This document shows, in pieces, positions 8,124-18,767 of a stretch of DNA of 18,767 bases. Positions within the stretch are counted from its first letter, which is position 1, and every line of letters starts with the position of its first letter. The notes beneath the pieces were generated by a model. The model was not told the DNA's origin. It saw nothing but the letters and a program-made list of their open reading frames with translations, and did not search any database. Source of the DNA: Gemmatimonadota bacterium (GTDB taxonomy: Bacteria; Gemmatimonadota; Gemmatimonadetes; Gemmatimonadales; GWC2-71-9); assembly GCA_039588295.1 (NCBI GenBank), contig JBDHAB010000061.1, forward strand, positions 1 to 18,767. Reading direction: 5' to 3'. Both the position numbers and the translations under genes were made by a program.

Positions 8124-8465
8124 TCACGCCGCGCGCCGCCTCTGGACCGGCTTGAACACGAACCATTCGGCGTGAAGGTTGGGGCCGTCGTCCGCGACGT
8201 AGTGGAGGCACACGCGCTGGTCCTCCGCGAGCGACGCCATATCGGCGTCCGCGAGGTTCCCCTGGTAGTCGCCATCCGAGCCGCTGACGTAGGAGAGCGT
8301 CTTCGCCGCGACCAGCTCCGTGCTCTGGTCTGTGTCCAGGACCCGGCACGTCACGGCCGCGCTCGAGGTGTAGTAGTTGGCGTCGTCCTCTGCGAGCTGG
8401 GCGTTCGCCAGGCCGAGCAGCTCTAGGAGGTTGTCAGAGAAGAGGAAAAGCGGATCGCCGGCCAT
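8124..8465 (-). CDS. Putative beta-sandwich adaptor/virion protein (113 aa) of the fibre cassette
   Basis: TGATG coupling to the 1948-aa gene. AAVTCRVLD...LSYVSGSDGDYQG pattern resembles BppU-N/Ig-like adaptors (inference). Confidence 0.65.
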   Translation of the reverse strand: MAGDPLFLFSDNLLELLGLANAQLAEDDANYYTSSAAVTCRVLDTDQSTELVAAKTLSYVSGSDGDYQGNLADADMASLAEDQRVCLHYVADDGPNLHAEWFVFKPVQRRRAA

Positions 8466-11400
8466 CAGTCGTCCTCCCGCTTGTTGACCTTTGGATCGCC
8501 CGCGAGGGCTCCCTTCGTTCCCAGCTTACGGGACGCGAGGGCCGGCTTCGAGTCTGGAGTCCCGGCCAGGGCCGCGCGATTCGAGGGAAGCCCGATCAGC
8601 GTTCCGTAGAACTGCGTAATGAAGTCGAGCAGCGGGACCTGGCCCACCAGGCTCAGGACGCCGGCCGGGACCGTGATCGAGAAGGGCCCGAGTGTCGCGG
8701 TAGGCTCGCTCGCGCTGAGGGTCAGGCTCGCGCTCGAAACCTCGATGCTGAACGGGCCGAGGCTCGTGACCGGCACCTGGCCCGTGAGGCTCAGCGAGGC
8801 CGCGTTCACTTCGATGGAGAAGGGGCCGAAGCTGGTCACGGGGGCGAATCCGGTGAGATTCAGGGAAGCCGTCGGGACCACGACCGAGAAGGGCCCGAGG
8901 ACCGTCGGCACCTGGCCGGTCAGGGTGAGGGAGCCGCTCCCGGGCTGCACGAGCTCGTCCTCGGCGACCAGGAACTCCGCCATGACCAGCGACGCGCGAG
9001 TCGGGGCCCCGATGGTCTTGTGGAACTCGACGGTCTTCGTGCCCGCGCTCGTGACCTGGTGGTCCGCGACGGACCCGCTGCTCGAGCTGGACGTGTGGTC
9101 GATCTGTTCCGTGAAGTCGCTCAGGTCGTCCTGCGTCCAGGCGGAGCCAGCCGTTCCGGCCGTTCCGGCGGCGACTACGGCGACGAGGTACGCGCCGAGC
9201 GTTCCGTCGATCGTGTCGCTCATCGGGTTATCGGGGGGCTCTGCACCGAGCGTTTCTGTGTCCCCGAGTGGATCGCCTTGGTCGACGTTCTCGTACGTCG
9301 CGACGCTCCAGCGCTCGTTATTGGGAAGGTTCGACCAGCTCCAGGTCATCGCCTGTGAGCCGGCGAGAATGTCCGCGTCGAGCAAGTACCAGATTTCAGC
9401 TCCGGCCTTGAAGCCCGCACCTGTTTCGAGATTGACCGCCTTCGTGAGGTTGTTTCCGCCGAACTTGACCCAATTTAGGGTTGCCGATCCGGTGTCCTCC
9501 ATCTCGATCGTGACCACGAGCGCACGGTTCGTGCCGGCTCCCGCGGTGTGGTTGAAGGTCGTTCCTGGGTCCACATAGTCCGCCCAAGAGCCTACGCGCG
9601 CGACCACGTTGAGTCCGGGATCGGGGACCGGGACCTGGCCTGTCAGCGCCAGAGCTCCGGCGTCCGGGGTGATCGAGAACGGTCCGAGCGAGGAGATCGG
9701 CACGGCTGCGGTGAGCGTGAGCGTCGCCGAATCGGGCGTGACGCCGAACGGCCCGAGCGACGAGATCGGGGTCTGCCCGGCGAGCACCAGGTCGGCCTTG
9801 CCGACCGGAATCGTCTCTATCTCCTCCAGGTCCGCAATCGGCACCTGGCCGGTAAGTGCCAACGTCGCCGCGCCCGGTGTGATGTTGAACGGACCGAGAC
9901 TCAAAACGGGGATCTGCGCGGTGAGGATGAGCGCGGTCGATGCTGGACCGACCACCACGTCCTCTCCTGCAACGGGGACTTGGCCGGTCAGAGTCAGAGC
10001 CGTCGAGCCGACTATGATCTGGAACGGCCCGAGTGCGGGAGTCGGTGCAGCTCCGGTGATAGTCAGCGACGTCGAGTCGACCGTGATCGTGAAGGGACCG
10101 AGGGACACCGTGGGGGTCTGGCCTGCAAGTGTCAGAGTGGCACTTCCTACTTCGATGCTGAACGGCCCGAGCGACGGGACGGGCACTTGGCCCGTCAAAG
10201 TGAGCGCGCCGGCACCCGGGATCACCTCGACGTCCTCCGTTGTATCCGCGATCGGCACCTGGCCGGTCAGAACCAGCGCCCCCGCGGCGGGTGTGACGGA
10301 GAAGGGGCCTAGGCTCACGGTCGGCACCTGGCCGGAGAGAGTGAGCGTCGCGTTTGTGACCTGAATCGAGAAGGGGCCCAGGTCGGGCGTAGGCACCGCC
10401 GCGGTCAGCGTTAGCGTTGCGCTGCCGACCCCGATGGCGAACGGGCCCAGCGAAGGCGTCGGCACCTGGCCCGTGAGTACGAGTGCGGCGGCAGCCGGGG
10501 TGACGGAGAACGGACCTAGGGAGGACACGGGAGCGAACCCCGCGAGCGTCAGTGGCGTCGAGTCGACGAGGATTGCGCCAGTAACTACGTCCGCGACCGG
10601 AACCTGGCCGGTTAGAATCAGGGCGGCAGCGGCAGGCGTGATAGAGAAGGGACCGAGGTCAGGAGTGGGGACTTGGCCGGTCAGGGTGAGGGAGCCGCTG
10701 CCCGGCTGTACCAGCTCGTCCGTGGCGACCAGGAGCTCGACCATGAGCATCGCCGTACGGTTTGGAGCCCCGCCCGCGTTCTTGAACTCTGCCGTCTTCG
10801 TTCCGCTGCTCAGGACGTCCAACTGCGCGACCGATCCGCTGCTCCCGCTCGAGGCGTGATCGAGCACCTCGTTTAGATCGCTGCCGCTGTCCTGTGTCCA
10901 GGTATCCGTACCGAGCCCGCAGACGACGGCTACGATGTGGGAGTAGAGCGAGACCGATAGCGTGTCTGTGATGGGGTCTGGTGCGGGCGCCCCGGTGTTG
11001 ACCGCAGTATTCCCGATCGGGTCTGACTGATCGACATTCTCGTAGGTGGCAACGCTCCACCTCTCGTTATCCGGGGCCGCGGCCCACGTCCAGGTGAGCG
11101 TCTGCGAGCCCGCTGGGATATCGGCCTCTTTGAGGTACCAAAGATGCACCCCGACGTAAGTCCCGGGCCCCACGTTTATGCTGGTGGCTTTTGTCAGGGA
11201 GTTACCCCCGAAGGTCACGCTGGAGATAGATGCCGAGGTGTTGTCTTTCATCTCGACCGTCACCACGAGCAGACGATTCGTCCCGGCCTGGGCCGTGTGG
11301 GAGAAGCTCGTCCCGGGGTCTATGTACTCCGACCAGGAGCCGACGCGCTTGACCTGGCCGGCATCGACGTAGGGAAGCTGCGGCGTGAGCGTCAGATCCG

Positions 11401-14311
11401 TCTTTGCCACGGGAATCGTCACGTCAACCGAAACGTTCGCAACCGGGACCTGGCCGGTCAGCACGAGTGAGCCAGCGGCGGGAGTGATCGAGAAGGGTCC
11501 AAGCGAAGGCGTCGGAACCTGTCCAGAAAGCGTCAGCGCCGTGCTCCCGACTTCAATCGAGAATGGCCCTAGATCCGGCGTTGGAGCCGCTCCCGTGATC
11601 GTCAGGGAAGTGGAATCGACCGTGATTGTGAACGGACCGAGGGAGACGCTTGGAGTCTGCCCTGCGAGGGTGAGTGCCGTAGATCCCACCTCGATAGAGA
11701 ACGGACCGAGAGAGCTCACCGGGACCTGGCCGGTCAGCGCGAGCGCGGTGCTTGCGACCGGGATCGTGGTGTCCCCAGCCACGACGTCCACGACGGGGAT
11801 CTTCCCGGTGAGGGTGAGTGCGGCCGATCCAGGCTTCGGCGTTCGGTCGCCCGTCTGAATCGCCAGGTAGGTCCACTTCCTCGCGGTTGCAGCGACCGTC
11901 GTGTAGTTCAGCGTGAAGCCGTCCGAGTCGAGCGACGACGGCTCCGCCATGATCCCGACGTTTCCGGCGTTGTTCAGCGCCTTCAATCCGTCTCGGCTAT
12001 AGACCTGATTCGTGTTCGACTCGGCGACCGCATCCTGATCTGACCAGGAGTACGATGCCGAGTTGTCCGTGCCAACGATCGGCATCCCGAAGAATATGGC
12101 ACCCGCCTGGGTATCGGTTTTTTCGGAGTCAACCGTGTCGATCATTCCGCCGACGAGCATCAGATGAGAGGGCTCGAACCCAACCCCGGTGTACGCCTTT
12201 GTGCCGGTCGAGCCCCCCTTCGTGTCGATCGTGCCAACATCGACGCTGCGCCCCGCCGGCAGCTTCACGGCGAGGTAATGCAGCGTGATGCTCCCTGAAC
12301 TGACTCGCGTCGTCATCACGAACCCGGTCGCGGTCCATGAGGTGATCTCGGCTGCGCGTGTGCCGCCGAGACTTGTCGTGCGCGCGATGTACGAGGACGA
12401 GTGGAAGCCCACCGGCTGCATGTCGGGCACGGCATCGTCTGAGGAATAAGCCTGACAGCCTTGCGGGTTTCCGGTGACGTTCGCGGCGAATCCGACGCCC
12501 AGGTGAGCATCGGATGCGGGAGTAGTGGCCCCCAAAGCGTGCACTCCGATCAGAAAGTCCGCCTCGAAAGGCACATCGGTAGCCGTCGCCGTGGCGTCCT
12601 GCGTCGCGTTGCCGGTGAGGTGCCCGACGTAGAACTCGGCGTCGTCACCCCCGAACAGGACGATGAAGAACTTTTTGGAGGCCCCAACGTCCGCCACGTT
12701 CACCTTGATGCCGTCTTTGATCCAGTGGAGGTGCCAGAACTGCCCCTCCGTCAGACCGCCCGAGCTGGCATGGCGCTCGTAGAGTGGCACTCCGAGTGCA
12801 GATAAATCACCGTCACGCGATGTGTCTGCCGCTGCTTCGGCATCGTCGGCGTTTATATTGATCTGCCACGATTTCTCGGGCTCTGCGTACTGGTTCCGCC
12901 CGACGACGGCCCCCCAATTCGAGTGAACGTGCGCGGCAATCGTCTCGGCGGTGACGCCTGCTCCCCCAAACAGAAACGCCGCTTTCGGCCAGCCGAAGCC
13001 AGAAGAAGTGAACGTAGCTTCGCCGGTTGCGGTCGGCTCCGTCGCCTCGATGATGGCGACCTTGAAGTCGAAGCCCTGGTTGTCGGAGATGACGTAGGTG
13101 AACCAGGCGTTGTGGAGAAAGACCGTGTTCGTGTCGTCGTTCGCGTACGAGTTCGCGAGGAATCCCGTCGCGTTGCTCGGGGTGATGTGTTGCCCACCGA
13201 TCGTGCGCCAATCGTCTTGCGTGCTTAGCACCTTCCATTCGGTGCCCCACGTCCAGGTGCCCGACTGTGATGTGGTACGTCGGGTCCAGGGTTGGCCGGT
13301 GTTGCCGAGGAAGTTCTTCATGTAAGTAACCATGACTTCCTCGCCGGCCGGAGCGGAGCGATCCCACTGGATGATGACCTGATAGGTGGTCGTGTCGGCG
13401 GCTACGGGGTCCGTAATGTCCGTCTTGAACGTGAAGCCGCCGGTCGTATCGTCGTGGTCGGCCTCGAACACGTTTAGCGCGGAGGACGCCGACGGGGCAG
13501 CCTCCCATATCGCCACCAGGGCTTTCCCGTTGTCGGGTCGCACCATCGCGTCGAAGTTTTTGTAGGCGGCGCTCAGGATGTGTCCGCCCGACGCCCCCAT
13601 GTCCTGATCGCCGTCCCAATCCGGCGTACCCGCCCCCGCGTTGTACCAATTCATCGCGACCGTGTTCGCGTCAGGCGGGGTGTCCTGCCAGAGCACGAGC
13701 CACCAGTCGTCGGTGCTGTTCGACTCTCCGGCAGGAAGGAGGAGCCCCCAATCCGTCTGCTCGGTCGCTCGGCTCCACTTCGATGCGCCCTTTGCGGAGA
13801 AGCTCGCGGTTGCGCCCTTCGTGGTCGAGACGATGAAGAAGTGCGCGGCGTCGGTGTTGTTGACGCGGCAGACCGCGCCGACGTGCCCGGCACGGTTCAC
13901 CGAGATCGAGACGTGGTAGCGAGCCGGGGCACTGGAGGCTGCGCCCGCCTGGCTCGGGTCGAAGTTCTTTTCTGCCGTCGTGGTGAACGAGTCGGACGCC
14001 ATGTCGATCGTCCGGTAGTAGAACTGACCGTTGGACGATCCGTCGCGAGAGACGTACCCGACGTGCAGAAGACTCCCGGTGTCCCCGGGAGTTTCCCAAT
14101 CCGCGTGCGCGTCGATCTTCCACGCGGCACTCGTAAAGAAGCTGGTCAGCTCAGACCATGTTTCCCCGTAGTCGGTGCTCTTGCGGACGACCGCCGTCGT
14201 CGTACCGGTCTGGATGATCTCGATCATCCGGTTCTCGTAGGAGAACGGACCGACAATCCCCCACCACGTATTGCAGTTTGCGAAGGTCGTGCCTATCTGA
14301 ACTTCCGGCAC
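8465..14311 (-). CDS. Giant fibre/adhesin-like virion protein (1948 aa): N-terminal propeller-like domain, second beta domain, ~28 x ~23-aa repeats and two duplicated ~205-aa inserted domains
   Basis: Long open frame with a GTG start. Asp-box-like STDYGETWS near the N-terminus. GFGWPKA / VPFEADF / VGFEPSH internal motifs. LGPFSI.V.S.ALTLTGQVP repeats. Confidence 0.85.
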   Translation of the reverse strand: MPEVQIGTTFANCNTWWGIVGPFSYENRMIEIIQTGTTTAVVRKSTDYGETWSELTSFFTSAAWKIDAHADWETPGDTGSLLHVGYVSRDGSSNGQFYYRTIDMASDSFTTTAEKNFDPSQAGAASSAPARYHVSISVNRAGHVGAVCRVNNTDAAHFFIVSTTKGATASFSAKGASKWSRATEQTDWGLLLPAGESNSTDDWWLVLWQDTPPDANTVAMNWYNAGAGTPDWDGDQDMGASGGHILSAAYKNFDAMVRPDNGKALVAIWEAAPSASSALNVFEADHDDTTGGFTFKTDITDPVAADTTTYQVIIQWDRSAPAGEEVMVTYMKNFLGNTGQPWTRRTTSQSGTWTWGTEWKVLSTQDDWRTIGGQHITPSNATGFLANSYANDDTNTVFLHNAWFTYVISDNQGFDFKVAIIEATEPTATGEATFTSSGFGWPKAAFLFGGAGVTAETIAAHVHSNWGAVVGRNQYAEPEKSWQININADDAEAAADTSRDGDLSALGVPLYERHASSGGLTEGQFWHLHWIKDGIKVNVADVGASKKFFIVLFGGDDAEFYVGHLTGNATQDATATATDVPFEADFLIGVHALGATTPASDAHLGVGFAANVTGNPQGCQAYSSDDAVPDMQPVGFHSSSYIARTTSLGGTRAAEITSWTATGFVMTTRVSSGSITLHYLAVKLPAGRSVDVGTIDTKGGSTGTKAYTGVGFEPSHLMLVGGMIDTVDSEKTDTQAGAIFFGMPIVGTDNSASYSWSDQDAVAESNTNQVYSRDGLKALNNAGNVGIMAEPSSLDSDGFTLNYTTVAATARKWTYLAIQTGDRTPKPGSAALTLTGKIPVVDVVAGDTTIPVASTALALTGQVPVSSLGPFSIEVGSTALTLAGQTPSVSLGPFTITVDSTSLTITGAAPTPDLGPFSIEVGSTALTLSGQVPTPSLGPFSITPAAGSLVLTGQVPVANVSVDVTIPVAKTDLTLTPQLPYVDAGQVKRVGSWSEYIDPGTSFSHTAQAGTNRLLVVTVEMKDNTSASISSVTFGGNSLTKATSINVGPGTYVGVHLWYLKEADIPAGSQTLTWTWAAAPDNERWSVATYENVDQSDPIGNTAVNTGAPAPDPITDTLSVSLYSHIVAVVCGLGTDTWTQDSGSDLNEVLDHASSGSSGSVAQLDVLSSGTKTAEFKNAGGAPNRTAMLMVELLVATDELVQPGSGSLTLTGQVPTPDLGPFSITPAAAALILTGQVPVADVVTGAILVDSTPLTLAGFAPVSSLGPFSVTPAAAALVLTGQVPTPSLGPFAIGVGSATLTLTAAVPTPDLGPFSIQVTNATLTLSGQVPTVSLGPFSVTPAAGALVLTGQVPIADTTEDVEVIPGAGALTLTGQVPVPSLGPFSIEVGSATLTLAGQTPTVSLGPFTITVDSTSLTITGAAPTPALGPFQIIVGSTALTLTGQVPVAGEDVVVGPASTALILTAQIPVLSLGPFNITPGAATLALTGQVPIADLEEIETIPVGKADLVLAGQTPISSLGPFGVTPDSATLTLTAAVPISSLGPFSITPDAGALALTGQVPVPDPGLNVVARVGSWADYVDPGTTFNHTAGAGTNRALVVTIEMEDTGSATLNWVKFGGNNLTKAVNLETGAGFKAGAEIWYLLDADILAGSQAMTWSWSNLPNNERWSVATYENVDQGDPLGDTETLGAEPPDNPMSDTIDGTLGAYLVAVVAAGTAGTAGSAWTQDDLSDFTEQIDHTSSSSSGSVADHQVTSAGTKTVEFHKTIGAPTRASLVMAEFLVAEDELVQPGSGSLTLTGQVPTVLGPFSVVVPTASLNLTGFAPVTSFGPFSIEVNAASLSLTGQVPVTSLGPFSIEVSSASLTLSASEPTATLGPFSITVPAGVLSLVGQVPLLDFITQFYGTLIGLPSNRAALAGTPDSKPALASRKLGTKGALAGDPKVNKREDD
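8625..11845 (-). repeat. Degenerate ~69-bp (23-aa) coding repeats in three blocks (about 7, 16 and 5 units) separated by two paralogous domains
   Basis: Counted by eye from the translation. Blocks at roughly 11845-11360, 10720-9620 and 8960-8625. Consensus LGPFSI(E/T)(V/P)xx(A/S)LTL(T/A)GQVPxxx. Confidence 0.85.
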
Positions 14312-14656: not shown

Positions 14657-15103
14657 CTAGCCGCTGAGCTGGAAATACCCGTTGGCGTGAATCTGAATCG
14701 TCAGCGTGTTCCCGTCGTTCACCGTCACGTTCGCGGGAGTGTTGTCGAGCAGCGAGTAGCTCACGAGCGGATCGAGCGGCGAGGCAGGAGTGTCATCCCA
14801 CAGAACCGCGAACCGGCAGATGATCGACCCGCCGGCAGCGGTCCAGGTCGGATCGTCCGAGTCGAATGTCACGGTCCCCGAAGACTCGACCCACGTCCGC
14901 GTCACCGCGTCCCCGCCGGTCAAGTACCCGAACTGCTGGGCGTGCTCGTTCGTCAGGTCCCCCTTGAGTGAGTTCGTCAGCGTCGCGGCGTTCGACGTGT
15001 CCAGGTACAGGGCGACCTTGAAGGCATCGCCGTCCAGGTCCATCGACCCGTCGGCCATGTACTCCTTGAACTTGTTGTAGTGCTTCCACGCATCGGCGGC
15101 CAT
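14657..15103 (-). CDS. Conserved beta-rich phage virion protein (148 aa), candidate fibre subunit
   Basis: Pattern W..YN.FK....DG..DLD.D.FKVAL...GY..GG.....W....G.VTFD..DPTWTA.GGSI..R.AVL.DDT...DPLV....LD....TV..G.TLTI.....G.F.L is a recognisable family that typically precedes long repeat proteins. SD GGAGGG. Confidence 0.85.
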   Translation of the reverse strand: MAADAWKHYNKFKEYMADGSMDLDGDAFKVALYLDTSNAATLTNSLKGDLTNEHAQQFGYLTGGDAVTRTWVESSGTVTFDSDDPTWTAAGGSIICRFAVLWDDTPASPLDPLVSYSLLDNTPANVTVNDGNTLTIQIHANGYFQLSG

Positions 15104-15104
15104 G

Positions 15105-15344
15105 TCAGTTGCCCTCCAGGCTCAGCTCCGCGGGCGGGATCGTGATGCTCACGTCCCCCGCGCGGCGCTTGCGAAGTGCGGCCACCCGAGCCTCGGCGTG
15201 GGCCAGCTCCAGGGACTCCCTGAGCTCCCCGATCGTCTTCTTGATCTTCTCGGCTCGCGGACCACTCACGGTCCCCAGCCGGGCCGTCAGCTTCGCGATG
15301 CTGTAGCGGACCCTCTCAGATCGTAGCGATGCCTTGTCCGGCAT
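15105..15344 (-). CDS. Small basic helical protein (79 aa) ending in one copy of the fibre-repeat-like strand (GDVSITIPPAELSLEGN)
   Basis: SD GGAGGAGG before ATG. Stop 1 nt before the next ATG. Confidence 0.75.
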   Translation of the reverse strand: MPDKASLRSERVRYSIAKLTARLGTVSGPRAEKIKKTIGELRESLELAHAEARVAALRKRRAGDVSITIPPAELSLEGN

Positions 15345-15615
15345 TTGGAGCCTCCTCCAGTGGTATCCCCACGATTGTCAGCTTGGGCTTCAATCGGAAG
15401 TACCGCTTGCACGTCGTACAGAACGGGGGCTCTTTCGCCTCGAACGCCACCGTCCCGTCCGCGGATCGGTCCAGGCGGATGATGGCCGCGCCGATCGGCT
15501 CGTACGGACACGCGATCCGATGGAACTCGGACGTCTTGCCGCGACCGAGCGTTTCGATCCGTTGCTTCGGCAGGGCCTTCGGGCCGGATAGTTCGTCCCC
15601 CACGGGGACGAGCAT
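15316..15615 (-). CDS. Hypothetical protein (99 aa) with H-x3-C and CxxC (possible zinc ribbon); first gene of the leftward operon
   Basis: Coding-like codon usage, with FHRIACP and FCTTCKR. The SD-like GAGGT abuts the ATG, so the start is less certain. Confidence 0.6.
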   Translation of the reverse strand: MLVPVGDELSGPKALPKQRIETLGRGKTSEFHRIACPYEPIGAAIIRLDRSADGTVAFEAKEPPFCTTCKRYFRLKPKLTIVGIPLEEAPNAGQGIATI

Positions 15616-15627
15616 ACCTCAAAAGGT

Positions 15628-15696
15628 GGCCGGGGGCGCGGCGCTGCGCCGGCTGTCTGGACGGACCGTCCAACGGAGCGCGCATCGCCCCCGGCC
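15628..15696 (-). promoter_or_regulatory. Long imperfect leader hairpin at the 5' end of the leftward operon
   Basis: Perfect 11-bp inverted repeat 15628-15638/15686-15696 enclosing further pairings (TGCGC/GCGCA, GCT/AGC, TGGACG/CGTCCA). Followed on the minus strand by ACCTTTT. Confidence 0.65.
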
Positions 15697-15702
15697 GATC
15701 CC

Positions 15703-15708
15703 AGGATA
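15703..15708 (-). promoter_or_regulatory. Putative -10 element (TATCCT) of the leftward/late promoter; no recognisable -35
   Basis: TAnnnT hexamer with 6 nt between it and the first base of the leader hairpin (15696). Confidence 0.45.
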
Positions 15709-15713
15709 CCCAC

Positions 15714-15742
15714 TTGCCCCGGACCCCGCCCAGGCGTACTCT
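15714..15742 (+). promoter_or_regulatory. Putative sigma70-type rightward promoter TTGCCC-N17-TACTCT
   Basis: Canonical 17-nt spacer. ATG of the first rightward ORF lies 8 nt downstream of the -10. Confidence 0.6.
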
Positions 15743-15750
15743 CGCGGCCG

Positions 15751-16011
15751 ATGGGGACGGACCGACCAGGCTGCTCAGGACTCCCGGAAAGCGTGTTCAC
15801 GATCGACCGGGACGATCACGGCGCGATCTACGTCTCCGTCCGCGGCGGCCCCACGCTCCTACTCCTCGGGGCGATCACCGCGCGCGACCTGAGCCAGAAC
15901 CAGGTGCTCCCCTTCATCCGGGACCGGCTCGAGGAGTACGTTGACCAGGGCGCGATCCCGGAGGATATCGCCCGCCGAATCCACGAAACCCTATCCGAGG
16001 AGGACCCATGA
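15751..16011 (+). CDS. Hypothetical protein (86 aa; alternative GTG start at 15793)
   Basis: Coding-like codons from 15793 onward. ATGA coupling to the next gene. Promoter immediately upstream. Confidence 0.7.
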   Translation: MGTDRPGCSGLPESVFTIDRDDHGAIYVSVRGGPTLLLLGAITARDLSQNQVLPFIRDRLEEYVDQGAIPEDIARRIHETLSEEDP

Positions 16012-16262
16012 CACAGCCAGAGAGCCCATCCGAACGTCCGAGCCCGATCTCCGCGCTGAGGCTCGGGGACTGGTTCACCCACCACCCGCCCAAGAATGAC
16101 GAGCAGATCCAGGGCTACGTCCAGATCCGCAACGCCGGGCACGACTTCGCGCGGACCATCGTCGCGAACTGCCCGCCGAGTGCGGACACGACCGCGGCGG
16201 TCCGCAAGGTCCGCGAGGCGGTGATGACGGCGAACGCCGCTATCGCCTGCGAGGGCCGGTGA
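16008..16262 (+). CDS. Acb2/Tad1-like helical-hairpin protein (84 aa), candidate cyclic-nucleotide sponge (anti-CBASS/anti-Thoeris)
   Basis: WFTHHPP...Q...Y..IR.....FA..I...CP.SADTTAAVRKVREAVMTANAAIA matches the FTYH-P...SRE.S.A.TKLEEA.MWANA.IA family pattern. Strong SD GAGGAGG. Confidence 0.65.
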   Translation: MTQPESPSERPSPISALRLGDWFTHHPPKNDEQIQGYVQIRNAGHDFARTIVANCPPSADTTAAVRKVREAVMTANAAIACEGR

Positions 16263-16552
16263 TGAGCCCCGAATCCACACCGAAGGCCACGCTCCGCGAG
16301 CGCATCCTCGCACTCCGCGAGTTCGCCCTGGAGCTGACGAACCTGGCCGCTGCCGTCCAGAACAACGTCGACGTCCCCGTCCCGACCGAGGTGCTCGACC
16401 AGCCGGAGAGCCCGGACGCCCCGCTCTCCGTGATCGCGAGCGATGCGATCAACTACCTGGCGTCGGCCCGCAAGACCCTCCAGGAAACCATCGGCCAGGT
16501 CGAGCCGAGGGACCGCAGCACAGGCGCAGCCGCGCAGGTCAAGCCGTTCTGA
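16259..16552 (+). CDS. Hypothetical helical protein (97 aa; GTG 16259 or ATG 16262)
   Basis: GTGATG overlap with the upstream stop. Coding-like codons. Confidence 0.7.
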   Translation: MMSPESTPKATLRERILALREFALELTNLAAAVQNNVDVPVPTEVLDQPESPDAPLSVIASDAINYLASARKTLQETIGQVEPRDRSTGAAAQVKPF

Positions 16553-16553
16553 C

Positions 16554-16583
16554 TTGACAGCCCCCACCTGACAACGGCATGGT
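16554..16583 (+). promoter_or_regulatory. Putative promoter TTGACA-N18-CATGGT
   Basis: Perfect -35 in the short intergenic gap, with an imperfect -10. GTG of the next ORF is 8 nt downstream. Confidence 0.55.
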
Positions 16584-16591
16584 TCGGGGCC

Positions 16592-16963
16592 GTGGTGAGG
16601 AAGAACACGCAAACCGAGTCCCGCGATCTTTCTCACCACAGGGACAGATCGTCAGAAGCCCCGGGGGCGCAAGCCTCCGGGGTTTCGCGTTCCATCTCCT
16701 TCATCCGCAAAGACGACCCGAAGGGCATCTACCTCGTCCTGGACGACCAGGCCCCGCAGATCCTCATTTCCGCCTTCGAGGAGAAGATCGCCAAGTACCC
16801 CGGCGACCTACAGCGTGCGGCCAAATTCACCCTCATTACCCGCCGCCACCACAAGGAGACTCTCCCGCCCGCGCTCGTCGCCCAAATCTGCGCCGAGCTG
16901 AGCGGCTTCCTCTACCGCGAAAAGCACCCCGGACTGCCCGCATCGGGGGACGCCGGCTCGTGA
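16592..16963 (+). CDS. Hypothetical protein (123 aa) whose first ~32 codons are RNA hairpins
   Basis: Downstream part has coding-like codons and a GTGA overlap with the next gene. The only in-frame starts are GTG GTG at 16592/16595. Confidence 0.6.
   Translation: MVRKNTQTESRDLSHHRDRSSEAPGAQASGVSRSISFIRKDDPKGIYLVLDDQAPQILISAFEEKIAKYPGDLQRAAKFTLITRRHHKETLPPALVAQICAELSGFLYREKHPGLPASGDAGS
16655..16686 (+). terminator. 14-bp hairpin with GCAA (GNRA) loop; terminator/attenuator-like
   Basis: GAAGCCCCGGGGGC-GCAA-GCCTCCGGGGTTTC. Two G-U pairs work only on the plus strand. Confidence 0.65.
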
Positions 16964-17694
16964 CCGACTTCCGCGCGACCAAGCGTTACGTCATCCCGAA
17001 GGCCAGATTCCGGCTCCTCCACTTCCTCAGGCGAGGCCACCAGCTCGTCTACGAGCACACCCGCACGGGGGACGGAACCTGCTGGGTTTCGCTCGAGTGT
17101 TCGCGCGCCGATTGCCACTGGCGGCTCGCCAGTACCGCCTTCCCGCCGAAGGCTGGTGAGCGCTCCGAGCTCGCCCAGGCCCACGCCCGAGATTCCCTCC
17201 AGTCCTGGCCGTGCCCCTGCGGCTTCGCACGCATCGGCCCGTTCTGCGACCGCTGCGGCTGGGACGGCAACCGGCTCGGAGTCTTCGCTGACCACCCGCT
17301 CGCTACGGAACCGCGCGGCCAGTCTGCCCCGGGGGCGGGTCTAGGCAACCCCGTCGACGAACCCCCGGGGCCCACCCTGCTCTCCTACTTCGGAGGCGCC
17401 GAGACGGTCGGCCCGACCCTCAAGGACCACCCGCTCGCCGACGGCGGCCTTCGCTGCCCCTGCGGCCTCACGACTCACAGCGCCATCTACCCCGCTTTCT
17501 GCGAGGGGCTCCCAGCGCCCCCCGCCACATCACGAACGAACCAAGCACCTCCTCGGCTCTCGGGAACTGGCCCGAGCACGCCCTCCATGCCGGTTGAACC
17601 TGGACAGACACCCGCGCCGGCATCCGAGAAAGCCCATGACCAGGGCGAGCGTGACCCGAGCGATTCGGACGGTCCCCCTTCCAGGCTCCGCTGA
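16960..17694 (+). CDS. Cys/His-rich hypothetical protein (244 aa) with putative zinc fingers and a disordered Pro-rich tail
   Basis: Likely start is GTG 16960 (GTGA overlap), not 16579. Motifs CSRADC, CPCG...CDRCG, CPCG...H...C, and DHPLA twice. Confidence 0.6.
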   Translation: MTDFRATKRYVIPKARFRLLHFLRRGHQLVYEHTRTGDGTCWVSLECSRADCHWRLASTAFPPKAGERSELAQAHARDSLQSWPCPCGFARIGPFCDRCGWDGNRLGVFADHPLATEPRGQSAPGAGLGNPVDEPPGPTLLSYFGGAETVGPTLKDHPLADGGLRCPCGLTTHSAIYPAFCEGLPAPPATSRTNQAPPRLSGTGPSTPSMPVEPGQTPAPASEKAHDQGERDPSDSDGPPSRLR

Positions 17695-17812
17695 CCGACC
17701 CCGTTCGCCGCGTACCGAGAGTGGGAAAATACCAACGCCGCGAAAAATCGCGCGCCACCCCTATAAGAGGTGCGGAGTCCTCCACTCACCCTCCCCATGC
17801 TACGAGTCGTCC

Positions 17813-18030
17813 ATGCCGGTGACTCGCACGGGGGGTGGAGTCGGCAGGAGATCGGGGGCGGTCGCCACAACCGTCGGGGTAGCTCGGGCCCGATCGACCG
17901 GCGTTCATCAGAAACCCCCCCGTAGGACCGCACCGATTCCGCGGAGCGGAACTCGGGAGGACCGCACGCCCTCGGCAGAGAGGTCCCCTGCCCTCGATAC
18001 CTCGACTCGCGCGAGCGTCGAGGCATCATC
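17813..18030 (+). ncRNA. Putative structured non-coding RNA upstream of the tRNA-like gene
   Basis: Consecutive and nested stems: GACTC/GAGTC, GATCGGG/CCCGATC enclosing GGCGGT/ACCGTC, TTCCGC-GGA-GCGGAA, GGCAG/CTGCC, CCTCGAC/GTCGAGG with GCGA loop. AGGACCGCAC direct repeat at 17924 and 17958. No convincing ORF. Confidence 0.45.
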
Positions 18031-18039
18031 CCAGGTCTT

Positions 18040-18111
18040 CGCGGGAGCGCGTGGGCGCACGCTGGGCCCATAACCCGGCACCGGGGGGTTCGACTCCCCC
18101 TCCCGCTACCA
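18040..18111 (+). tRNA. Atypical initiator-type tRNA-Met(CAT), 72 nt including encoded CCA, with shortened D-arm
   Basis: Acceptor CGCGGGA/TCCCGCT with C1:U72 mismatch, discriminator A and CCA. T-arm GGGGG-TTCGACT-CCCCC. Anticodon arm CTGGG-CCCATAA-CCCGG with three consecutive G-C pairs; CAT at 18069-18071. Confidence 0.85.
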
Positions 18112-18476
18112 GGGCGGATTCCGCCGCCACCTCACATCAGATCCCGCCCTTGACCGCAGGTGCGAATTGAACCCCGCCGCGCACCATTTCGCACCCATCC
18201 AGAGCCGGGGGGGGAGCTGATACCCCCCACCCGAGAGCCTGTTCGTATGGGACCCGATGAGACTCTGGCGGTGCGCGTTGGGGCCCCAAATCGGGTTTGC
18301 TTGACGGGGTCCGTCTCTCCTGCGCTCGCGCGCGAGCTGCCCGCTGCGCCGGCCTGGCGATGTCGCCTCTCCGGTAGAAGCGACACGCACGAGGGAGCTC
18401 GATGACGCTCGTGCTGTCTGCGGCCTTGAGAGCGCATGGCACGCGCGTCTGTATCGGCCCCGCACCTGGTGCTCGG

Positions 18477-18485
18477 TGCTACTCT
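18477..18485 (+). promoter_or_regulatory. Putative extended -10 promoter TG-C-TACTCT
   Basis: TGnTAnnnT with ATG 7 nt downstream. Same TACTCT hexamer as at 15737. Confidence 0.55.
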
Positions 18486-18492
18486 GGCCGGC

Positions 18493-18767
18493 ATGGCGAG
18501 AGGTGGATCGGCGAGGGATGACAGCCGAGCCCAGGATGGGGGGAGGCCATGGGTCAGGGATCACCGTCTGATCTTGCGGGTGACGGCCGGGGAGCTGCGA
18601 ACGCTGGCGCGGGTGGCGGAGGACTGGGGGCTGCCGGTCGGGACGGCTGCGTGGGCGATTCTCCGGGAGCGGCTCGACCAGTCCCGGCGTCGGGAGGTGT
18701 CGGTGCGGACGCCCGCGAGCCTGGCGCTGGCGCGGTTCATTCTCCGGGCGGACAGGCCGGGCGACAG
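18493..18767 (+). CDS. Partial (runs off window) ribbon-helix-helix-like DNA-binding protein, MARGGSARDD...VRDHRLILRVTAGELRTLARVAEDWGLPVGTAAWAILRERL
   Basis: Open from ATG 18493 to the edge. The RxxRLxLRVTxxExxxLxxxAxxxGxxV pattern is typical of CopG/MobC-type RHH proteins. No SD, so probably leaderless. Confidence 0.65.
   Translation, partial: MARGGSARDDSRAQDGGRPWVRDHRLILRVTAGELRTLARVAEDWGLPVGTAAWAILRERLDQSRRREVSVRTPASLALARFILRADRPGD

Follow-up and report, generated by a model that had tools for sequence, protein, structure and literature searches.

The CAU anticodon, A73 and the first acceptor pairs of a bacterial initiator tRNA (tRNA-fMet) are determinants for methionyl-tRNA synthetase (MetRS) and for the formyltransferase, and A11:U24 is a minor determinant of formylation. 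A mismatch at 1:72 excludes EF-Tu and peptidyl-tRNA hydrolase, and three G-C pairs in the anticodon stem serve selection by the P site and by IF3. Here we describe a gene for an initiator-type tRNA(CAU) with a shortened D-arm, which lies at 18040-18111 on the + strand of contig JBDHAB010000061.1 in the Gemmatimonadota bacterium assembly GCA_039588295.1. The window that we analyzed (18,767 nucleotides) is the whole of this contig, C61 in a 4.5-Mb, 160-contig assembly. We put at roughly 0.55 the probability that this is a real gene, and that it encodes a working, structurally remodelled phage initiator-type tRNA of a recurrent class; this figure includes its putative use in initiation.

Metazoan mitochondrial tRNAs work with strongly reduced or missing D-arms, having co-evolved with dedicated factors, and their D-loop/T-loop contact is often lost. 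In contrast, that contact seems to be kept in the window tRNA, and the host machinery is ordinary bacterial. The tRNA-Sec and allo-tRNAs, as described in the accessible part of one report (Mukai et al., PMC5389517), have in common with the window tRNA a closed D stem with a GG tetraloop and the loss of the 8-14 and 15-48 core contacts. They differ from it in their 8/4, 9/3 or 8/5 branches, 6-bp D stem, long variable arms and other anticodons, whereas the compact-D class described below combines a 7/5 branch and a 4-5 bp D stem abutting the acceptor with a short variable region and initiator identity. Allo-tRNAs and (8/4) tRNAs occur in bacteria and in phage tRNA clusters, and the terms initiator, fMet and tRNAMet are absent from the main text of that paper, supplements aside (PMC5389517).

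According to the available text of van den Berg et al. (eLife 2023, PMC10264068), phage tRNAs may escape anticodon nucleases by substitutions in the anticodon loop, and phages generally avoid encoding tRNA-fMet where VapC-LT2 targets tRNA-fMet. Those tRNAs, like the window tRNA, are phage-encoded, differ from the host in the loop (by C33 here) and belong to an accessory region; the changes in the available text are point changes in the loop, and the D-arm goes unmentioned there, whereas here the tRNA body is remodelled. The residue C33 is shared with eukaryotic cytoplasmic initiators. Among the initiators covered by the consulted sections of one study, prokaryotes have U33 and multicellular eukaryotes C33, and a U33C substitution in the E. 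coli initiator tRNA abolishes t6A37 formation by E. coli TsaBCDE in vitro (PMC8887486). The window tRNA is otherwise of the bacterial initiator type. We found no description of shortened-D-arm phage tRNAs or of a compact-D initiator tRNA in the full-text literature, subscription-only papers and supplements aside.

The tRNA gene and its fold

ARAGORN called a single tRNA in the window, a tRNA-Met(CAT) composed of the following parts.

18040-18111, + strand: whole tRNA(CAU) gene, 72 nt with encoded CCA (ARAGORN; 84.2 bits with our covariance model R1, the window tRNA being among the 10 sequences from which R1 was built)
18040-18046, + strand: 5' strand of the acceptor stem; C1 (18040) is unpaired against T72 (18107), and positions 2-7 pair with 18101-18106
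18047-18058, + strand: predicted compact D hairpin, with stem GCGC (18047-18050), loop GTGG (18051-18054) and stem GCGC (18055-18058), from pair probabilities, class layout and covariation
18059-18061, + strand: connector ACG, 3 nt, from the D hairpin to the anticodon stem (class layout; identical ACG in the relative L281)
18062-18078, + strand: anticodon arm, with stem CTGGG/CCCGG and loop CCCATAA (sequence; ARAGORN)
18079-18083, + strand: variable region CACCG, 5 nt (AGGTC at the same place in the initiator of the host phylum)
18084-18100, + strand: T arm, with 5-bp stem GGGGG/CCCCC and loop TTCGACT (ARAGORN; the T stem covaries in relatives)
18101-18111, + strand: 3' strand of the acceptor stem, TCCCGCT (T72 at 18107), then A73 (18108) and CCA (18109-18111) (sequence)

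The first-pass annotation of this DNA, made from its letters without database searches, had listed a C:U mismatch at 1:72, three G-C pairs, a CAT anticodon, an intact T-arm and an encoded CCA, and the ARAGORN cloverleaf matches them. The acceptor stem has six pairs, the acceptor/T branch is 7/5, and all four helices are fully paired except for one G-U; the pairs of the D stem are G-C and C-G only. The three loop-proximal G-C pairs of the anticodon stem join GGG (18064-18066) to CCC (18074-18076), and the anticodon occupies 18069-18071. The sequence likewise bears out the annotated 15-nt D interval, the missing U8 and A14, and the loop CCCATAA, in which position 33 is C (18068) and not U. The usual interval between acceptor and anticodon stems is about 19-21 nt (here 18047-18061), and the D-loop has 4 nt, compared with 7-11 nt in canonical tRNAs. 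Nucleotides equivalent to U8, N9 and A14 are missing, and A11:U24 is not present.

We compared this tRNA with the initiator tRNA of the assembly itself (contig C4), the phage contig being assigned to this host by binning only. The window tRNA shares with bacterial tRNA-fMet, including the C4 copy, the CAU anticodon, the mismatch of C1 with position 72, the pairs G2-C71, C3-G70 and G4-C69, the three anticodon-stem G-C pairs, A73, the 7/5 branch and a 5-nt variable region, and its acceptor stem is the same as that of C4 except at pair 7:66. The host gene differs in having a normal 20-nt D region, U33, the variable loop AGGTC and another T-arm, and its CCA is not encoded. On these differences we rejected the window tRNA as a host copy; the longest stretch that it shares with the rest of the host assembly is 17 nt.

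When we looked for the initiator motif in 401 genomes of the host phylum, the U33 form was present in 359 and the C33 form in none (355 and 0 of 397 if four unpublished genomes, G192, G073, G505 and G478, are left out). The 5' half of the initiator was nearly invariant among these sampled genomes. The annotation had called C33 rare in bacteria, a view that these counts uphold and with which the consulted part of PMC8887486 agrees.

The minimum free energy of the 72-mer was -39.6 kcal/mol (z = -2.14, 200 shuffles), which by itself is weak support for structure; the set of structurally matching relatives described below is the stronger evidence that the gene is more than chance. The minimum-free-energy fold includes a compact hairpin, GCGC-GTGG-GCGC followed by ACG, directly 3' of the acceptor stem. 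ARAGORN uses another register, in which a GCG spacer precedes CGTG-GGCG-CACG and nucleotide 26 is missing, and the annotation had proposed this same mini hairpin. As full cloverleafs, the two registers have energies of -34.6 and -31.5 kcal/mol, and their pair probabilities are 0.85-0.88 and 0.11, respectively. The third hairpin pair is G-C in the window tRNA and T-A in L281, a change that is compensatory in the first register and meaningless in that of ARAGORN. The D hairpin thus probably uses the GCGC-GTGG-GCGC register, which is common to the relatives, and the annotated one (0.11 against 0.88) is probably not the one used.

No Rfam family matched the window at curated thresholds, and the window tRNA stayed below the gathering threshold (29 bits) of the general tRNA family RF00005. 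The best matches at relaxed thresholds were to tRNA-Sec (RF01852; 25 bits, E 0.026, gathering 47) and to the tymovirus tRNA-like structure (RF00233; 19.4 bits, E 0.24, gathering 40). Relatives of the window tRNA behaved similarly, with only 1 of 20 class members passing RF00005 at the curated threshold in loci where 12 adjacent canonical tRNAs were detected, and ARAGORN calling 4 of 12 class members from IMG/VR. Phage tRNA surveys therefore probably miss this class, and if the genes are what we propose, phage tRNA repertoires are under-counted.

Relatives, covariation and tertiary contacts

To collect relatives, we scanned for CGCGGG, followed by 10-20 free bases and GGGCYCATAACCC; a canonical D-arm corresponds to 22-23 free bases. 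The scan matched 27 loci in IMG/VR, at least 118 in metagenome contigs and 72 in genome contigs. The counts that follow are among the matches listed, and their metagenome part is a lower bound. We parsed 210 sequences, including that of the window, and accepted as tRNA-like those with at least 4 of 5 T-stem pairs and a complementary acceptor 3' strand. There were 77 such sequences (63 distinct), the other 133 being chance matches or fragments.

The variable loop divided the 63 distinct sequences into 21 of host type and 42 of non-host type. Host-type sequences carry the variable loop AGGTC or close variants of it and mostly have TTCAAAT or TTCGAAT T-loops; they are probably damaged duplicate host initiator genes or recombination scars. 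Examples (L259, L297, L218, L157 and L136/L155) come from bacterial genomes and metagenomes, among them Kitasatospora and Streptomyces records, and have internal deletions or replacements in the D-arm.

We defined a compact hairpin as 4-5 bp beginning 0-1 nt after the acceptor stem, with a 3-5 nt loop and a 2-3 nt connector; the window tRNA has this layout (offset 0, 4 bp, 4-nt loop, 3-nt connector). It was present in 31 of the 42 non-host-type sequences, compared with 2.9 ± 1.6 expected and a maximum of 10 in 2000 shuffles of the D region, and in none of the 21 host-type sequences. The shuffle test is independent of the later selection of a class and is the unbiased test. The 31 sequences and L281 make up class A (n = 32 including the window), in which the D region is 13-17 nt long. 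Besides the window, class A draws on 12 IMG/VR loci, 14 metagenome contigs and 5 genome contigs, and all five of the latter are contigs of metagenome-assembled genomes (MAGs), 2-51 kb long, with no isolate chromosome among them. The class is found almost only in phage and metagenome contigs.

Initiator marks are retained across the class. Position 72, which was left free in the search, never pairs with C1 in any of the 42 non-host-type sequences (C:A 18, C:T 17, C:C 7), and A73 is present in 38 of them. CCA is encoded in 24 of the 42, compared with 6 of the 21 host-type sequences. The CAU anticodon and the three G-C pairs are kept as well, the latter being fixed by the search motif and hence uninformative across the class. 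C33 occurs in 12 of the 42 and in none of the 21. It also occurs with normal-length D regions, in 29 IMG/VR loci of which 14 parse as tRNAs; the U33 form with a normal-length D region is present in at least 114 IMG/VR loci (63 distinct among the matches listed). C33 is therefore a feature that recurs in initiator-type tRNAs of phages, whether or not their D-arm is compact.

The sequence nearest to that of the window, L135, is 87% identical over 68 nt and has the same GCGC stem and also C33. Among the other near sequences, L091 has C33 and L281 has an identical D-loop GTGG, connector ACG and variable loop CACCG. Similarity of class members to the window is confined to the tRNA, with none in the flanks. 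In 18 virus records with short-D initiator-type genes (5 to 311 kb), no portal like that of the window was found. With no shared flanks and no such portal, the compact-D design is spread over unrelated phages. L090 gave one weak tblastx match in the capsid gene region, which found no backing in the portal search.

Many class members have canonical tRNAs as neighbours in phage tRNA arrays. The compact D hairpin is found in these arrays with other anticodons too, namely TAT (L181:550-620 and L120:242-312), GAT (L120:494-564) and TGC (L145:711-782), so the body plan is not restricted to initiators. A Planctomycetales MAG contig (L235) has tandem compact-D copies on the minus strand, at 472-543 and 566-637, with a single difference, in the anticodon loop (A or T at position 38). 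Two jumbo-phage records of about 310 kb have a canonical-D CAT tRNA with a GGG/CCC stem (L084:215-290 and L089:356-431) adjoining a compact-D one (L084:301-373 and L089:266-338), so the two forms coexist in one genome.

We built model R1 from 10 members of identical layout and used it to align 36 sequences from class-A loci; an earlier MAFFT alignment of the 32 members (A1) put gaps in the wrong places of the acceptor stem, and no counts were taken from it. Paired cells made up 96.8% of the 36-sequence alignment, compared with 72.1% after shuffling. The covariation score, which like the loop statistics below takes no account of relatedness among members, was 0.632, compared with 0.150 after shuffling and at most 0.159 when partners were slid by 1-3 columns. 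In the D helix, 96.5% of cells were paired and all four pairs had changes on both sides; its first pair, for example, is GC in 15 sequences, CG in 9, AU in 4 and UG in 4. Acceptor pair 7:66 is similarly varied (GC 15, UA 8, AU 6, CG 6, UG 1). The first pair of the T stem is intact in 35 of 36 sequences and covaries, which indicates a 7/5 branch and led us to reject an 8/4 acceptor/T alternative as in allo-tRNAs.

Two loops that were not selected for in building the class also vary together. GG stands in the D-loop of 28 of the 32 class-A members, always together with Y55-C56 in the T-loop; the four members with AG in the D-loop all have G55-C56 (Fisher p 3e-5, relatedness not corrected). The window tRNA has GG in its D-loop GTGG and Y55-C56 in its T-loop TTCGACT. 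In four class-A members, T54:A58 is swapped to A54:T58. This pattern fits retention of the D-loop/T-loop elbow contact, and hence an L-shaped tRNA. The compact-D architecture is under selection, as the covarying stems and the covarying D-loop/T-loop contact demonstrate. Two members, L099 and L230, have the T-loop ATCGACA, with A54 and A60, a combination usual in the cytoplasmic initiator tRNAs of eukaryotes.

These data bear on two further points in the first-pass annotation. It had looked to covariation among homologs as a check, and all four D-stem pairs covary, in homologs from unrelated phages. It had also held that the gene is a maintained non-canonical initiator and not a product of simple decay; the relatives keep every stem by compensatory changes and keep the initiator hallmarks, which agrees with that view.

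Proposed role and alternatives

The first-pass annotation had put forward nuclease resistance, a decoy and a processing tag, all of which are candidate purposes here. If the window tRNA works as an initiator, it would be processed from its transcript as other tRNAs are, receive methionine from the host MetRS and then a formyl group, and start translation from the ribosomal P site in infected cells. Its altered D-arm and C33 would set it apart from the host's invariant initiator at sites read by an enzyme that targets or modifies tRNA, which could belong to a host defence or be a shut-off factor of the phage itself; this is the weakest step of the proposal. The phage would in this way keep a supply of initiator while that of the host is attacked, and escape from tRNA-targeting enzymes is possibly the purpose of the design. 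A broader proposal, which we regard as tentative and would not bet on, is that a separate tRNA body plan has arisen in phages and spread among unrelated lineages, with a closed, tRNA-Sec-like D hairpin fused to the acceptor and often C33. It would work with the host MetRS, formyltransferase and ribosome and would go unrecognized by enzymes for which the canonical D-arm, U8 or U33 is the recognition site. If so, there would be a structural route, beyond the anticodon-loop route, to escape from tRNA-targeting immunity or from the phage's own host shut-off, and the same plan would serve some elongator tRNAs (Ile, Ala) in phage arrays.

Without initiator tRNA, translation as a whole fails, and this tRNA hardly varies in sequence across the host phylum. 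A phage version with another body would show, as a natural test, how much of the tRNA core is required by MetRS, the formyltransferase, IF2/IF3 and the P site. It would also point to defences or shut-off factors directed at initiator tRNA, and would offer engineering a compact orthogonal initiator scaffold.

Several points weigh against a working initiator. Its expression, processing, charging and formylation are putative, being predicted from sequence and fold. The core contacts U8-A14 and R15-Y48 have no counterparts in the window tRNA, and with these and A11:U24 missing, acceptance by RNase P, MetRS, the formyltransferase and the ribosome can only be presumed. Two motifs (CGCGGG and GGGCYCATAACCC) were kept fixed in collecting the class, which makes those positions invariable by construction, and it was chosen for having the hairpin; the alignment behind the pair counts was fitted to the R1 model. 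L281 was put into class A by hand and has A-C as its first hairpin pair in the class register. The most obvious initiator-specific nuclease is not in evidence in the host bin: we found no PIN/VapC gene (PF01850) in the binned genome, which is 96% complete.

The gene is also sporadic and was not found in the nearest relatives of the phage that were searched. A portal-based search of IMG/VR returned 75 loci with protein identity of up to 59%, and ARAGORN found no tRNA-Met in any of them. RF00005, a poor detector of the compact-D class, gave nothing in the five nearest whole virus records, and model R1, which does detect that class, had no match in the 75 portal loci (918 kb) or in those five records, several of the records being fragments.

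We weighed five other explanations. The RNA might be made and yet serve as a decoy or sponge, unused in initiation, that titrates an enzyme attacking or modifying tRNA-fMet, for example an anticodon nuclease, a toxin that acetylates Met-tRNAfMet or a modifier of the CCA end. Preservation of the anticodon stem-loop features beside a remodelled body and a loop changed by C33 would suit such a role, as would the predicted Acb2/Tad1-like sponge gene nearby and the proposal, in the available text of PMC10264068, that phage tRNAs counter tRNA-targeting defence. We nevertheless consider a decoy unlikely: the features for charging, formylation and EF-Tu avoidance are kept class-wide (1:72 mismatch in 42/42, A73 in 38/42), as is the D-loop/T-loop contact, none of which a pure nuclease decoy needs, and the host bin yielded no PIN gene. 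It is less probable still that the element acts in cis, as an RNase P/Z entry site or 3' tag of a surrounding long non-coding transcript. Its position inside about 1 kb without coding periodicity, with GC-rich hairpins on the flanks, is what such an element would have, but the relatives share the tRNA and no flank similarity, many of them lie within arrays of ordinary tRNAs, and a conserved CAU, three G-C pairs and 1:72 mismatch would be superfluous in a processing tag.

Slightly further down the scale we place a decaying or dead gene, that is, a captured initiator tRNA with partial loss of its D-arm. The same scans did return 21 host-type short-D sequences that resemble damaged host genes, the window tRNA fails the Rfam tRNA threshold, and the phage's nearest relatives lack a detectable copy; yet the D hairpin is absent from all 21 damaged copies, the helices of the window tRNA are paired apart from the one G-U, and unrelated phages show this compact design again, with compensatory changes. 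The sites at which phages integrate often include tRNA 3' halves, and the annotation had named an attachment-site duplicate (attP or attL/R) of a host tRNA gene as a finding that would overturn its reading. This does not apply, and we regard it as very improbable: no integrase family was found among the 26 open reading frames (ORFs), the T-arm, variable loop and D-arm are unlike those of the host initiator, at most 17 nt are shared with the host assembly, and a 5' half exists that is base-paired with the 3' half. A search of 400 host-family genomes gave only three chance matches to the window tRNA, 27-30 nt long, in coding-looking sequence, none of them called as a tRNA. Least credible of all is another CAU identity, elongator Met or a tRNA-Ile2 after lysidine modification; the CAT anticodon is common to all three kinds, but a 1:72 mismatch with three G-C pairs marks an initiator, and the window tRNA has both, the mismatch being class-wide.

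The phage contig and its surroundings

Its predicted genes identify the contig as a fragment of an SU10-type phage. The contig has 65.6% GC and the genome 64.2%. The features placed by family matches or as ORFs are as follows.

Minus strand: SU10-type major capsid protein (Pfam, E 6e-93)
Minus strand: scaffold protein (family match)
Minus strand: SU10-type portal (E 1e-204)
Minus strand: large terminase (family match)
8465-14311, minus strand: 1948-aa ORF that separates the + strand block from the terminase side (matched by no Pfam or PHROG family)
16008-16262, + strand: 84-aa protein with an Acb2/Tad1 hairpin domain (Pfam PF24729, E 4e-11; PHROG 1454)

A block of + strand genes starts at about 15.75 kb, and the tRNA lies downstream of it on the same strand. 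The Acb2/Tad1 hairpin family includes sponges for cyclic-nucleotide immune signals, and its presence suggests that the block upstream of the tRNA is a counter-defence region, which would give the tRNA an accessory or counter-defence setting. IMG/VR had no relative for the N-terminal 504 aa of the 1948-aa protein or for an adjacent 371-aa ORF (16579-17694, + strand). By third-codon-position GC, the latter is probably two genes: the signal tracks the frame of 16592-16963 first and that of 16579 only from about 16950. The first third of the 371-aa translation is Arg/Pro-rich nonsense, and the later part is Cys-rich and zinc-finger-like, without a family match.

The tRNA itself lies inside about 1 kb (~17.5-18.5 kb) in which the third-position GC plot shows no coding periodicity. 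A blastn search of 17700-18767 against deposited phage genomes gave no match, and a search for sequencing runs that contain 15700-18767 listed none, RNA runs included. We found no sites with a sigma-70-like promoter consensus in 15000-18767, a consensus that says little for this phylum, and two terminator-like sites in the same interval, which were on the other strand, no more numerous than in shuffles and not near the tRNA. A GC-rich hairpin stands just upstream of the tRNA (18000-18023), and a short one directly follows CCA (about 18113-18125). An open frame at about 18570-18767 (+ strand), which runs off the contig end, resembles a small ribbon-helix-helix-type DNA-binding protein, without a family match.

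Another contig of the same bin (G000 contig C14) has an array of 19 tRNA genes at 47.6-63.8 kb, about 16 of them with encoded CCA. Three are CAT tRNAs, two of which have initiator-like GGG/CCC anticodon stems and T1. Outside this array the genome is mostly without encoded CCA, and the array may be another phage or a mobile tRNA island.

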